Of a stretch of 64,000 nucleotides of DNA, positions 5,585 through 25,523 are shown piece after piece. The notes under the pieces are model-generated. The model had not been told where the DNA came from and searched no databases. It was given only the letters and a program-made list of their open reading frames with translations. The stretch comes from a bacterium (GTDB lineage: Bacteria; Patescibacteriota; Dojkabacteria; GCA-002793355), in contig JADYZG010000028.1 of assembly GCA_020853235.1 (NCBI GenBank), positions 1,881 to 65,880 of the forward strand, read 5' to 3'. Every line of letters begins with the position of its first letter. Position 1 is the stretch's first letter. A program made the position numbers and the translations under genes.

Positions 5585-5893
5585 ATGTCGCGAGAAGATT
5601 TCCGTAAAATGAACACAGGTTTTCGGTGTCAGCAGTGCGGTAAAGCAGTCCCATCAGCAGAAAAGACCTCTCGAAATCATTGCCCGTATTGTTTGTATTC
5701 GAAACATGTCGATATTATTCCTGGGGATCGTATGGAAGTATGTCAGGGTCTAATGAAGCCAGTAGATTATGACTACAAACATGGTAAGGTAATAATTCAG
5801 TTCAGATGTATAAAATGTGGAAAAACTGGTATCAACAAAGCAGCTCCAGATGACAATTTGGACAGATTATTACAGAAGAGTCAGATGGGTTAG
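5585..5893 (+). CDS. RNHCP domain zinc-ribbon protein
   Basis: Literal SRNHCPYCLYSKH motif plus CQQCG and CIKCG pairs. I prefer the ATG at 5585 (MSREDF...) to the ORF-track start at 5558, which overlaps the upstream gene. Confidence 0.7.
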   Translation: MSREDFRKMNTGFRCQQCGKAVPSAEKTSRNHCPYCLYSKHVDIIPGDRMEVCQGLMKPVDYDYKHGKVIIQFRCIKCGKTGINKAAPDDNLDRLLQKSQMG

Positions 5894-21865: not shown

Positions 21866-22078
21866 TGCTATAATTATTCATCGCACGTCGATCAGGATCA
21901 GTAGCAGAAATGTGAACCTACCCTGTGAGTGCTCGAGGAACCGCAATGCTAACTCGTCTGCTGGAGCAGGAAAATCTCCAACTTGAGCCGAAGTATTTCT
22001 TCGGAAAGGTAGGGTGGTACCACGAGCCTAGCTCGTCCTTGCTAATAGAATTGTATTAATTTTATTATTGTAAGGAAT
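21866..22078 (+). promoter_or_regulatory. T-box leader (proline specifier CCU) with its own TGcTATAAT promoter
   Basis: Extended -10 at 21866-21874. Candidate specifier GAA-CCT-A at 21914-21920. Stem III hairpin CCGAAG/CTTCGG at 21988-22004. T-box sequence AAAGGTAGGGTGGTACCACGAG at 22005-22026 with a TGGTACC bulge. Antiterminator-like helices are ACGAGC/GCTCGT and GTAGGG/CCTTGC. Confidence 0.8.
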
Positions 22079-23824
22079 ATGAGGTACACGCAAATGTTAA
22101 CTAAATCTCAGAAATCCTCGAAAACGTTTGATAGCGTTAATGCAACGTTATTAATTCGTGGTGGATTTGTCGACCAGCTTATGTCTGGTGTTTATACCTT
22201 TTTACCACTGGGATGGAGAGTTCTGAAAAAAATTGAAGATATTGTTCGAGAAGAAATGGACAAAATCGGCGAAGAAGTGTTTATGCCTGCTATTGCACCA
22301 AAAGAAGTATGGGAAACAACAGGAAGATTCAGTACAGTTGACGTGTTATTTAAGGTAGTCCCAGCAAATGAAACCTCCAAAAATAAGAATGGTGCTGAGT
22401 ATGTTCTTAATTGTACACACGAAGAGCTTATAACTCCTTTAGCAAAAAAGTTTGCGACTTCGTACAAAGATTTACCAAAGGCTGTCTATCAAATTCAATC
22501 GAAGTTTCGTAACGAGGCTCGTGCAAAATCAGGTATTATGCGCGGGCGAGAGTTTCGCATGAAAGATCTTTACTCTTTTCATACGAGTGTCGATGATCTT
22601 AAGATGTATTATGAAAAAGCGAAAGCTGCTTATTTTACAACATTCAAACGTCTCGGGTTAGAGAAAGATACAGTATTAGCAGCAGCTTCTGGAGGAGACT
22701 TCACCGAAGACTTTTCGCATGAATTCCAAACAAGATGTGAAGCAGGTGAAGACACAATATTCTTTGTTCAAAGTACTAAAGAGGCGTTCAATAAAGAAAT
22801 CGCTCCATCAAGAAGTGTCTCTTTTGACCAAGATAAAGAGCAAAAAGCATTGGAAAAAGTATTTGGAGAGAATATTATCGGTGTTGCAGAACTTTGTGAA
22901 TTTATGGGTATTAGTGCAGAAAATACTACAAAAACACTTATCTTTGATACAGAAAAAGGTCCTATCATTTGTTCAGTACGAGGTGATTATGAAGTTAATG
23001 TGCTAAAGTTGAAGAAATGTGCTGGTGTCAAACAGCTAGTTCTTGCCTCAGAAGAAACAGTCAAAAAGGTAACAAGCGCCGAAGTTGGGTATGCAGGTAT
23101 CTATAATTTGCCTAGCGATATTCCAGTGTTTATTGATGACTCTATTGCCGATCTTGTTAATTTCGAAACTGGAGCAAACGAGACACATTACCATATGAAG
23201 AATATGAATTGGGGAAGAGATATTCAAAAACCAGAAAAATTCTACGACATCAAAGAAGCAAAATTAGGTGATATGTTTCCTGTCACAGGAGAAGTTTATG
23301 AAGTATTTAAGTCAGCAGAAGTTGGCAACATCTTCCCTCTCTATACGAAATTTACTGATGCAGTTGATTATAAATTTGTCGACGCAAATGGTACATTAAA
23401 GCAGGTTTATATGGGGTCTTATGGTATCGGAACCTCACGCGTTATGGGAGTACTTGTTGAGAAGTTCCATGATGAGAAAGGAATCATTTGGCCAATTCAA
23501 GTCGCACCTTACGTCGTTCATTTGGTAAGTCTCGGCGATACTGTAGAAGTAAAAGAGATGGCAAACAAACTGTACGAAGAGCTGCAGCATAAGAACATTG
23601 AAGTGCTTTGGGATGACAGGGATACAATATCTGCCGGAGAAAAATTTGCTGACGCAGACCTTATCGGATGCCCTATTCGTGCGACAATTAGTACAAGGAG
23701 CATTGAGAAAGGTGGTGTCGAATTAAAGACACGATCTGGTCAAGATGTAGAATATGTAAGTGCTGAAATAGCAATTGATACTATTCAGAAGATGATAAAC
23801 CTGTTGAGAAATGCACTGAAATAA
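22079..23824 (+). CDS. proS: proline--tRNA ligase, bacterial type with INS editing domain
   Basis: 581 aa. The N-terminus aligns with bacterial ProRS (LIRGGFVDQLMSGVYTFLPLGWRVLKKIEDIVREEM). Motif 2 is FRNEARAKSGIMRGREFRMKD and motif 3 is GSYGIGTSRV, and a middle insertion domain is present. Confidence 0.9.
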   Translation: MRYTQMLTKSQKSSKTFDSVNATLLIRGGFVDQLMSGVYTFLPLGWRVLKKIEDIVREEMDKIGEEVFMPAIAPKEVWETTGRFSTVDVLFKVVPANETSKNKNGAEYVLNCTHEELITPLAKKFATSYKDLPKAVYQIQSKFRNEARAKSGIMRGREFRMKDLYSFHTSVDDLKMYYEKAKAAYFTTFKRLGLEKDTVLAAASGGDFTEDFSHEFQTRCEAGEDTIFFVQSTKEAFNKEIAPSRSVSFDQDKEQKALEKVFGENIIGVAELCEFMGISAENTTKTLIFDTEKGPIICSVRGDYEVNVLKLKKCAGVKQLVLASEETVKKVTSAEVGYAGIYNLPSDIPVFIDDSIADLVNFETGANETHYHMKNMNWGRDIQKPEKFYDIKEAKLGDMFPVTGEVYEVFKSAEVGNIFPLYTKFTDAVDYKFVDANGTLKQVYMGSYGIGTSRVMGVLVEKFHDEKGIIWPIQVAPYVVHLVSLGDTVEVKEMANKLYEELQHKNIEVLWDDRDTISAGEKFADADLIGCPIRATISTRSIEKGGVELKTRSGQDVEYVSAEIAIDTIQKMINLLRNALK

Positions 23825-23844
23825 TATCAAGTTATACATAGTAT

Positions 23845-25269
23845 ATGGAAAAAATTCCAAATATTTACGAGGATTTTTCAGAATGGTATCAGTATGTCAC
23901 TTTAAAGGCGGAATTAGCGGATTACGGTCCAGTTAAGGGCACTATGATCCATCGACCATACGGTTTTGCTTTATGGAAACAAGTACAGAAAGTGCTTGGA
24001 AACATGATTGAAGAGGATGAAGTTGAAGATGTTTACTTTCCAATGTTTATTCCGTACTCTTTTCTTGCTGCAGAGAAGGAGCATGTTGAAGGTTTTGCAC
24101 CAGAAGTAGCAATGGTAACTCAGGCAGGAGGAGAGAAACTTGATGAGCCGCTTGTTGTTCGACCAACATCCGAAACCATTATGTATAAGACGTTTCCCAA
24201 CTGGATACATTCTTATCGTGATCTACCTTTGAAAATTAACCAATGGTGTAACATCGTTCGCTGGGAAAAGAGGACCGTAATGTACATGAGAACATCTGAA
24301 TTCTTATGGCAAGAAGGTCATACTGCTCATGCCACGAGAGAAGGAGCTGTTGAGGACGTTATGGAGTCTGCAAAACGATATAACAGATTTTTGCGAGAGT
24401 ACATGGCAGTTCCTGGGTATATGGGTTACAAAACTGAAGGTGAAAAATTTGCTGGAGCAGACTTTACTGTTACAATTGAAGCACTTGTAAGAAATAAAAA
24501 AGCACTCCAAATCGCGACCTCTCACCTACTGGGACAAAATTTTGCAAAAGCGTTTAACATTTCATTCTTAGACGAGAACAATCAAACGCAACATGTTTGG
24601 CAGACAAGTTGGGGGTTTAGTACCCGCGCTTTGGGGGGAATGCTTGGTGCTCATGGTGATGAAAAAGGTCTAGTGTTGCCACCAAGAATGGCACCAATCC
24701 AGATTATTATTGTTCCTATATTCAGGACTGAAGAAGATCGTGTTGTTGTTGCCAACTATCTTGCAGGTGTAGAAGAAATGTTTAAAAACGCTAAAATTCG
24801 ATTCAAAACAGACTGGGGAACAGGAACACCTGGTTGGAAGTTCAATCAGTGGGAGATGAAAGGTGTGCCACTGAGACTAGAAGTTGGTAAACGAGAAGCA
24901 GAAGCTAAGCAGTTAAGCTTTAGCACACGACTTGGTAAAAAGGTTGGTTATGCAATGGAATCACAGGTTTACAAAGAAATTGAATTGCTTCTTGAAGAGA
25001 TCCAAGCAGAAATTTTTAGGAATGCAGAGAATTTCTTACTTGAGAATACTGTTGATATCTCCTCAGAAAAAGAACTCGTTGAGGCAATGGAATCGGGTAA
25101 AGCAATGTATCGTGCATTCTTCAAAGATGATACGAAGCGAGCGAAAGAATTACAGGAAAAATATAAGATTACTCCGCGCGTTATTCCTTTTGACACGATT
25201 GATCAAAGAGGTCCAGATTTCATCACTGGTGAAGAGGGGGTTCCAACTATCTTTGCAAAAGCCTATTAA
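23845..25269 (+). CDS. proS: proline--tRNA ligase, archaeal/eukaryote-like type
   Basis: 474 aa. The N-terminus FSEWYQYVTLKAELADYGPVKGTMIHRPYGFALW and the RPTSET and RTSEFLWQEGHTAH motifs fit this type. The protein ends in Tyr (...FAKAY), characteristic of this ProRS class. Confidence 0.9.
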   Translation: MEKIPNIYEDFSEWYQYVTLKAELADYGPVKGTMIHRPYGFALWKQVQKVLGNMIEEDEVEDVYFPMFIPYSFLAAEKEHVEGFAPEVAMVTQAGGEKLDEPLVVRPTSETIMYKTFPNWIHSYRDLPLKINQWCNIVRWEKRTVMYMRTSEFLWQEGHTAHATREGAVEDVMESAKRYNRFLREYMAVPGYMGYKTEGEKFAGADFTVTIEALVRNKKALQIATSHLLGQNFAKAFNISFLDENNQTQHVWQTSWGFSTRALGGMLGAHGDEKGLVLPPRMAPIQIIIVPIFRTEEDRVVVANYLAGVEEMFKNAKIRFKTDWGTGTPGWKFNQWEMKGVPLRLEVGKREAEAKQLSFSTRLGKKVGYAMESQVYKEIELLLEEIQAEIFRNAENFLLENTVDISSEKELVEAMESGKAMYRAFFKDDTKRAKELQEKYKITPRVIPFDTIDQRGPDFITGEEGVPTIFAKAY

Positions 25270-25286
25270 TTGTGTATAATTCGTTC

Positions 25287-25523
25287 ATGGCAGTTATTGT
25301 TGTACATAAAAATGAACCAATCGACTCTGTTTTGAGACGTTTTCAAAGACAAGTTATTAAAGAAGGTGTTATTTCTGACGTGTTGGATAAGCGTCATTTT
25401 GTCTCAAAGTCAGAAGCGAAGCGAATTAAAGCTCATGAACTTGAACGATCTGCAGGTCGAAAGCGACGACGAGCCAAGAGCAAACCACGAACTACTGTTC
25501 GAGTCAAAAAGAAGATGTTTTAA
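25287..25523 (+). CDS. rpsU: 30S ribosomal protein S21
   Basis: S21-like sequence with a basic tail (VVHKNEPIDSVLRRFQRQVIKEGV...). The ATG at 25287 is preferred, and TATAAT at 25275-25280 lies 6 nt upstream. Confidence 0.88.
   Translation: MAVIVVHKNEPIDSVLRRFQRQVIKEGVISDVLDKRHFVSKSEAKRIKAHELERSAGRKRRRAKSKPRTTVRVKKKMF

Follow-up and report, generated by a model that had tools for sequence, protein, structure and literature searches.

A 64,000 nt stretch of DNA (the window; positions 1,881 to 65,880, forward strand, of contig JADYZG010000028.1 in assembly GCA_020853235.1) from a bacterium of the Dojkabacteria (Patescibacteriota) carries two proS genes in tandem. Both encode a prolyl-tRNA synthetase (ProRS), the first of the bacterial type and the second of the archaeal/eukaryote type (archaeal type hereafter), and the pair lies behind a proline-specific T-box leader and ahead of rpsU (Table 1). 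The genome from which the window comes, G000, is an 840,625 bp metagenome-assembled genome (MAG) in 33 contigs that is approximately 95% complete, with 6.2% estimated contamination, and it contains one ProRS gene of each type and no more. A sequence-only reading of the window had described two full ProRS genes of different evolutionary types, back to back behind a T-box, and this description was confirmed by the family and structure matches, the Rfam match to the leader and the 20 nt spacer, with both open reading frames (ORFs) lying exactly where that reading had placed them.

Table 1. Features of the proS locus, with positions numbered from the first nucleotide of the window
Feature	Position	Strand	Basis or comment
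Extended -10 element TGCTATAAT, putative promoter of the proS leader	21866..21874	+	Read from sequence
Pro T-box leader, short Stem I	21879..22043	+	Rfam RF00230, full-length model
T-box specifier CCU	21917-21919	+	Follows GAA at 21914-21916
T-box motif AGGGUGGUACCACGAG	22010-22026	+	UGGU bulge at 22015-22018
Putative sequestrator hairpin	22036..22076	+	Minimum free energy and centroid folds of 21879-22085
Bacterial-type proS, 581 aa	22079..23824	+	Family, structure matches, motif conservation
Insertion (INS) editing domain of bacterial-type proS	about 22880-23215	+	Residues 268-379, catalytic Lys285
Spacer between the proS genes, 20 nt, TATCAAGTTATACATAGTAT	23825..23844	+	Read from sequence
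Archaeal/eukaryote-type proS, 474 aa, Tyr at end	23845..25269	+	Family, structure matches; resident, vertically inherited copy
rpsU promoter TTGCAA-16-TATAAT	25253..25280	+	Best promoter-like site of the region, 10/12 positions
rpsU (ribosomal protein S21), conserved 3' flank	25287..25523	+	ORF; PF01165 on homologous 78 aa genes (L039, L040, L042)

The two enzymes and their leader

The bacterial-type protein matched TIGR00409 (proS_fam_II) with 461 bits against a cut-off of 306.7 and fell narrowly under the cut-off of NF006625 (554 against 558 bits). Its Pfam domains are tRNA-synt_2b, tRNA_edit (the INS domain, PF04073; 80.8 bits, residues 268-379) and HGTP_anticodon, and the closest solved structure is that of the E. 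faecalis ProRS (2J3L; E 8e-111). The archaeal-type protein matched TIGR00408 (proS_fam_I) with 515.7 bits (cut-off 437). Its closest solved structure is T. thermophilus 1H4Q (E 2.5e-137), in an alignment that reaches the final residue and places its C terminus, ...TIFAKAY, against the terminal ...VVFAKAY of 1H4Q. Pfam found no INS domain in this protein, just core, anticodon-binding and C-terminal domains, with ProRS-C_1 a weak match (24.6 bits, cut-off 31.5). The four Cys positions of the zinc site in the C-terminal domain of 1H4Q face residues other than Cys in this copy. As the zinc site is not universal in the archaeal-type family, its absence here does not exclude membership of TIGR00408. 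Proteins of both types align end to end with solved ProRS structures, and each copy is an intact gene of this aminoacyl-tRNA synthetase (aaRS). Judged from their sequences, the two intact enzymes should charge the same two tRNA-Pro species.

The segment GNIFPLYTKFT of the bacterial-type ProRS (residues 416-426) had been singled out in the sequence-only reading as deviant near the active site. When compared with 141 bacterial-type homologues from the Candidate Phyla Radiation (CPR), it proved to be the norm. N417 is found in 139/141, P420 in 129/141 and F425 in 123/141, and GNIFPL is the CPR consensus, as is the sequence of the GXXXP loop, GYAGI. In motif 2, R144, E146, R148, R155 and F159 are present in all 141 homologues and R157 in 140, while the motif 3 segment G446-Y448-G449-G451-R454 and the catalytic K285 of the INS domain (in TTKTLIF) are invariant. 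The orthologue of this protein is the sole ProRS of the congeneric genome G003 and of the metagenome contigs L039 and L040. As the catalytic motifs are kept and this orthologue serves alone in these relatives, we conclude that the bacterial-type copy is most probably a working synthetase. Both prolylation of tRNA-Pro and deacylation of Ala-tRNA-Pro are predicted activities of this enzyme that are indirectly supported. A synthetase-dead, editing-only form of the bacterial-type protein was considered and ruled out, as the catalytic motifs are all intact and nonsynonymous divergence (dN) is low.

Synonymous divergence (dS) was saturated, with a proportion of synonymous differences (pS) of about 0.8 in nearly every pair, and just dN and an upper bound on omega were usable. 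For the bacterial-type proS and its relatives dN was 0.19-0.24. For the archaeal-type proS it was 0.070 when compared with the gene in L041, a metagenome contig that carries the archaeal-type gene alone, and rseP gave 0.27 in the same pair. As dN is low despite the saturated pS, both proS genes are under strong purifying selection. With G006, the nearest outgroup, 30 lineage-specific substitutions were assigned to the archaeal-type ProRS of G000 and 11 to that of L041 (p=0.004), a contrast that loses significance with more distant outgroups. Where sites do not vary elsewhere in the genus, the changes are mainly conservative, and the archaeal-type copy in G000 shows at most mild relaxation. The GC content, GC content at third codon positions (GC3) and codon usage of both genes are typical for G000, and the time at which the bacterial-type gene arrived therefore cannot be read from composition. 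The only ProRS gene of G006 (L028, G006:C12) has an in-frame TAA in place of the GAA of its congeners, 13 codons ahead of the usual stop. The conserved C-terminal Tyr would thereby be lost; sequencing error, true truncation and read-through are all conceivable.

No T-box was reported upstream of the pair by RF00230 at its default threshold. The match came from a permissive scan of the 213 nt upstream gap and scored 49.7 bits (E 5.5e-10 in a 501 nt search), against a gathering score of 93. The specifier loop reads GAA-CCU-A, where CCU is a Pro codon (GAA-CCC-G in congeners), and the final U of the UGGU bulge fits A73 of both tRNA-Pro genes. Stem I is shortened, with 4 nt in place of 55 positions of the RF00230 model, and a full Stem I with a distal platform is not present. 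We found no U-tract terminator after the T-box. Instead, UCCUUGC..., a stretch that also supplies the 3' strand of the T-box helix, is paired in both folds with ...GUAAGGA immediately 5' of the start codon, and the resulting hairpin covers the AAGGA/start region of the bacterial-type proS. As they share these bases, the hairpin and the T-box helix would be mutually exclusive, and the arrangement suggests that the T-box controls translation initiation, as in T-boxes of Actinobacteria with a short Stem I (PMC11297988). The leader of G000 is 92.4% identical to that of L041, far above the 64-77% nucleotide identity of the adjacent genes, which argues that it is functional.

The expression platform varies among members of the genus. 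It is a short AU-rich hairpin of approximately 40 nt in G000 (22037-22078) and L040, and a version of approximately 110 nt with an extra hairpin in L041 (1700-1817), L039 and G003. In G004/L042 (L042 4940-5000), a hairpin followed by UUUUUG looks terminator-like by eye, and the platforms of the genus may possibly switch between translational and transcriptional control. The T-box of G003 (L025) has an insertion of approximately 40 nt in Stem I (about 5790-5835) and another of approximately 15 nt (5870-5885) that are not in other leaders of the genus.

Upstream of the leader, alignments showed the block TGnTATAAT to be almost invariant in the genus, with G or T at the second position and TTGTATAAT in L040; this extended -10 element presumably acts as the promoter. 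A scan of the spacer between the two proS genes found no terminator, and no promoter better than chance, and the pair is probably co-transcribed as a single T-box-controlled transcript. There is no Shine-Dalgarno-like motif before the archaeal-type proS, which is unremarkable as about 81% of G000 ORFs of at least 150 aa have none between -18 and -4. The canonical anti-Shine-Dalgarno tail string of 16S rRNA was not found in the G000 assembly, from which the rRNA operon may be missing or in which it may be divergent. The possibility that the spacer is a duplicate of the 3' end of the leader, raised by a likeness by eye to the last ~24 nt of the L041 leader, was rejected because the match is too short and AT-rich.

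Three states and a deletion scar at one slot

Within the genus, the neighbourhood is collinear and has the order topA-radC-rpsB-tsf-frr-rseP-(leader)-proS-rpsU-ybeY-pth-hpf. Synteny revealed three states at the proS slot. The archaeal-type gene alone occupies it in the genomes G004, G005 and G006 and in the metagenome contigs L041 and L042, and the bacterial-type gene alone in G003 and in contigs L039, L040, L089 and L090. Both types in tandem were found in G000 only. The archaeal-type ProRS in L041 is 90% identical to that of G000, and the bacterial-type copy is missing from this contig. A search for contigs that encode the closest archaeal-type homologue (P0121, 90% identity) led to an archaeal-only locus. 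A scan of metagenome contigs for further relatives in the tandem state found none; its matches were the G003 species once more (L089, L090) and two distant ones. Among the 11 species genomes of the order, the archaeal-type proS is present in 10 and the bacterial type in three. Outside the clade formed by the genus, the bacterial type in the order is represented by just one gene, which is INS-less and located elsewhere in G007.

In all five bacterial-only loci, the stop codon of the bacterial-type gene is directly followed by (A/T)TC(C/T)TTGCAAAAGC(A/T)TATTAA. This 21-22 nt relic, found in independent assemblies, matches the 3' end of the archaeal-type gene at 19-20 positions and translates as (S/I)FAKAY-stop. 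On its 3' side is the common sequence TGTGTATAAT, and then the start of rpsU. The homology with the archaeal-type loci thus extends from the 3' side into the last seven archaeal-type codons and breaks off at the bacterial-type stop. As a relic of the archaeal-type 3' end lies after the bacterial-type stop, we conclude that bacterial-only loci go back to a tandem in bacterial-then-archaeal order, like that of G000, from which approximately 1.4 kb was deleted. Part of the relic is TTGCAA, which serves rpsU as its -35 box and in G000 lies within the final codons of the archaeal-type gene, and this explains why exactly this relic has survived. No relics of the bacterial-type gene were detected in the archaeal-only loci, where tblastn gave weak class II core paralogy alone.

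A homologous Pro T-box was found at the slot in 4/4 congeners scanned (G003-G006; 48-57.5 bits), and the other leaders of the genus align with that of G000 throughout. As the T-box is present in all states, it belongs to the slot and did not come with the incoming gene. The G000 leader is L041-like up to the T-box helix, and L040-like from the helix into the bacterial-type gene. Such a mosaic is in keeping with recombination inside the leader, whether this inserted the gene or exchanged alleles.

Further ORFs have been inserted beside the slot in some loci. In bacterial-only genomes alone, an ORF of 132-204 aa separates rseP from the leader (L025 5108-5722, L039 5124-5712, L040 5237-5776), and a 245 aa ORF lies between proS and rpsU in L042 (6493-7230). 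These ORFs are poorly conserved and have no Pfam match on record.

Origin of the pair and competing explanations

In phylogenies of the two families, the copies of G000 fell in different places. The archaeal-type copy is within the clade of the order (100% support), beside that of L041 (98% support), in a clade that broadly follows taxonomy, and this position fits vertical inheritance. In G000, G003, L039 and L040, the bacterial-type copies form a single clade, again with 100% support, among other CPR sequences, which indicates that the bacterial-type gene was acquired once. The nearest kin of this clade, at 60-64% identity, are from WS6 GW2011_GWF2_39_15 (G120), WWE3 and Roizmanbacteria. The backbone of the tree is weakly supported, and the donor can be placed no more finely than in another CPR lineage, the nearest sequences being those of Dojkabacteria f20/WWE3.

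We consider it probable that one gene has been displacing the other in situ and that the pair is a stage of this process that has been retained. Gene replacement had been one of the possibilities listed in the sequence-only reading, and it is strongly supported by the presence of both end states in the genus and of the scar in the bacterial-only loci. The ancestral arrangement in the order would have been rseP, the Pro T-box leader, the archaeal-type proS and rpsU. An INS-bearing bacterial-type proS from another CPR bacterium would have landed downstream of the resident T-box and ahead of the resident gene and taken over the leader, producing the tandem as it is seen in G000. Some congeners would then have lost the archaeal-type gene save for the last ~21 nt with the rpsU -35 box; others have the archaeal-type gene alone. 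In the tandem, where the two enzymes would be redundant, binding of uncharged tRNA-Pro to the CCU specifier and the UGGU bulge would stabilise the T-box helix, leaving the start region of the bacterial-type gene accessible.

Several observations weigh against so simple a history. A phylogeny based on 11 flanking proteins resolved the genus poorly, as a radiation in which carriers of the bacterial-type gene are interspersed with archaeal-only genomes; monophyly of the carriers was rejected on the flanking genes (p-AU 0.010), and the minimum number of state changes is three. As the carriers are not monophyletic, either repeated losses or exchange of alleles by recombination is needed. The pattern fits an old tandem sorted through repeated reciprocal losses, and it also fits three alleles moving among species via homologous recombination through the conserved flanks. 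Synonymous sites are saturated in comparisons with every sampled relative, and both copies are still intact; if the tandem is as old as this saturation suggests, simple neutral transience is strained. In addition, the tandem has been seen in one assembly only, and the co-transcription and enzyme activities have been deduced from sequence.

In a different view, the tandem is a long-lived, selected two-enzyme arrangement and the slot a three-allele cassette that is swapped between species by homologous recombination under balancing or fluctuating selection. We regard this as doubtful. If true, it would account for the frequent changes of ProRS type in Dojkabacteria, with selection imposed, for example, by a type-specific inhibitor or by proline/alanine conditions that favour INS editing.

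A stable functional partnership, in which selection keeps both enzymes because they are used differently, is in our view unlikely. The T-box-gated, editing bacterial-type enzyme could be a starvation-responsive or accuracy copy and the editing-less archaeal-type enzyme the basal supply, or Ala-tRNA-Pro that the archaeal-type enzyme produces could be removed by the INS domain. The strong purifying selection on both copies, with dS saturated relative to all relatives, is in keeping with such roles, as are the lack of any editing domain in the archaeal-type copy, a sequestrator hairpin that would gate just the start region of the first gene, and the recurrence of tandem pairs within the class. 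However, congeners manage with either gene alone, and the additional substitutions in the archaeal-type copy are nearer to mild relaxation than to a new constraint. The functional split put forward in the sequence-only reading found no support among the tRNAs either. Both tRNA-Pro genes (UGG, GGG) have C1:G72/A73, which leaves no second class of substrate. Among the 43 tRNAs, no tRNA-Pro-like species carries a non-Pro anticodon; after the UGG and GGG tRNA-Pro, the highest similarity score was 0.43. As the tRNA-Pro pair is alike and no other tRNA resembles them, there is a single tRNA-Pro identity set, with no tRNA substrate split and no system of the ProRSx type described below.

The only other editing domain in G000 is fused to the C terminus of a non-discriminating-type AspRS (contig C31:21-1166, L083), and it too argues against a partnership, being present whatever the ProRS state. 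Complementation of editing by this second tRNA_edit domain was rejected, as the domain does not co-vary with ProRS state across all members of the genus. The fusion combines PF00152 with a YbaK/ProX-like PF04073 domain, has a weak match to TIGR00011, and has homologues of approximately 601 aa in G003-G006 and G001. In G002 and G010, a YbaK/ProX-like domain of approximately 167 aa is free-standing.

It is very unlikely that the second ProRS type was acquired and kept for resistance or as a backup because a natural inhibitor in the habitat hits only one type; self-resistance or backup against a ProRS inhibitor had been among the possibilities given in the sequence-only reading. Part of PMC5388404 presents the gain of resistant aaRS paralogues by horizontal gene transfer as a known pattern. 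The very patchy distribution of ProRS types in Dojkabacteria, where they are mixed within families, would fit recurrent selection for switching, but the replacements appear in different gene orders across lineages, there are no biosynthetic or resistance genes nearby, the flanks consisting solely of housekeeping genes, and the sequence of neither copy is marked as a resistance variant. We know of no inhibitor in this habitat.

Finally, a chimeric join of archaeal-only and bacterial-only strains, which could arise in a MAG with 6.2% estimated contamination and would leave the tandem in a single assembly, is extremely improbable, as joining the known alleles would put the 3' relic at the bacterial-type stop rather than a 20 nt spacer and a full-length gene, the scar in relatives independently requires a former bacterial-then-archaeal tandem, the contig is 80 kb long with collinear flanks, and composition and codon usage are uniform.

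Wider occurrence and known systems

When all 221 species genomes of the class were considered, the archaeal type was found in 111 and the bacterial type in 101, and the two are often mixed within families. Bacterial-type variants in the class include INS-less proteins of ~410-435 aa and longer forms of ~735-754 aa. Both types occur together in seven of the 221 (the intersection of two tables) and are adjacent in three, G000, G043 and G107. Thus, most of the lineage lacks such a pair. In G043:C1 (L031 2672-6024), which represents another Dojkabacteria family, the tandem is also led by a T-box and has the opposite order, with an archaeal-type gene (507 aa frame) followed 22 nt later by an INS-less bacterial-type gene (420 aa). 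Bacterial-type ProRS frames of 733-754 aa in three further genomes (G102:C7:20482-22644, G103:C3:309784-311949 and G105:C9:3818-5992) match TIGR00409 twice, over overlapping ranges of the model (1-389 and 215-560/566), which suggests a duplicated INS region.

The concept of in situ xenologous, or non-orthologous, gene displacement was reportedly set out by Omelchenko, Makarova, Wolf, Rogozin and Koonin in Genome Biology in 2003. The locus described here resembles such cases in that a homologue of other origin is found at the position of the resident gene, with slot, flanks and regulation preserved. The flanks are conserved, the two genes belong to different ProRS families and tree positions, and a relic is present in 5/5 bacterial-only loci. 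It differs in that the intermediate and both end states are seen in one genus, in the 21-22 nt scar that bears a promoter element, and in that the gene is an essential, T-box-regulated aaRS of a CPR bacterium.

Genomes with both ProRS types have been described in Streptomyces, in a study that covered 42 bacterial-type and 34 archaeal/eukaryotic-type ProRS from 46 organisms and focused on a third isoform, ProRSx, with tRNA-Pro-like tRNAs that have Ala, Thr or Asn anticodons (PMC10404621). While the presence of a bacterial-type and an archaeal/eukaryote-type enzyme in one genome is shared, here the genes are adjacent behind one T-box, the genome is 0.84 Mb, and there is no ProRSx-type tRNA. The ileS-type T-boxes of Actinobacteria have a short Stem I and act by translational control (PMC11297988, PMC7583486). 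The leader described here has in common with them a specifier loop, pairing of the bulge with the tRNA 3' end, a truncated Stem I and a platform that seems to hide the ribosome-binding region. However, it is Pro-specific, belongs to Dojkabacteria, scores below the Rfam gathering threshold and has a platform that varies among congeners, and its mechanism has been read from sequence. In CPR, including WS6/Dojkabacteria, TyrRS and TrpRS of the archaeal/eukaryal type are known, and some genomes have both types (PMC5370408). Those cases likewise involve an aaRS of non-bacterial type in CPR, but concern class Ic enzymes and co-transferred tRNA identity, whereas here the identity of tRNA-Pro is unchanged and the archaeal-type enzyme is the resident. 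Co-occurrence of ProRS types is thus not new. The complete series, with its scar, in one genus is new, and it is a new example of a known process.

The replacement of an essential translation gene is usually read from trees long afterwards, while here the start, intermediate and end states are present in one genus. They show how one essential aaRS can give way to another while function is maintained: the newcomer enters downstream of the riboswitch and ahead of the old gene, so that it comes under the existing regulation, and the old gene is later removed down to the bases that the next promoter needs. The locus also documents Pro-specific T-boxes with a short Stem I in CPR that fall below the Rfam threshold, and the fluidity of ProRS type in Dojkabacteria matters for the use of aaRS as markers and for the annotation of CPR genomes.

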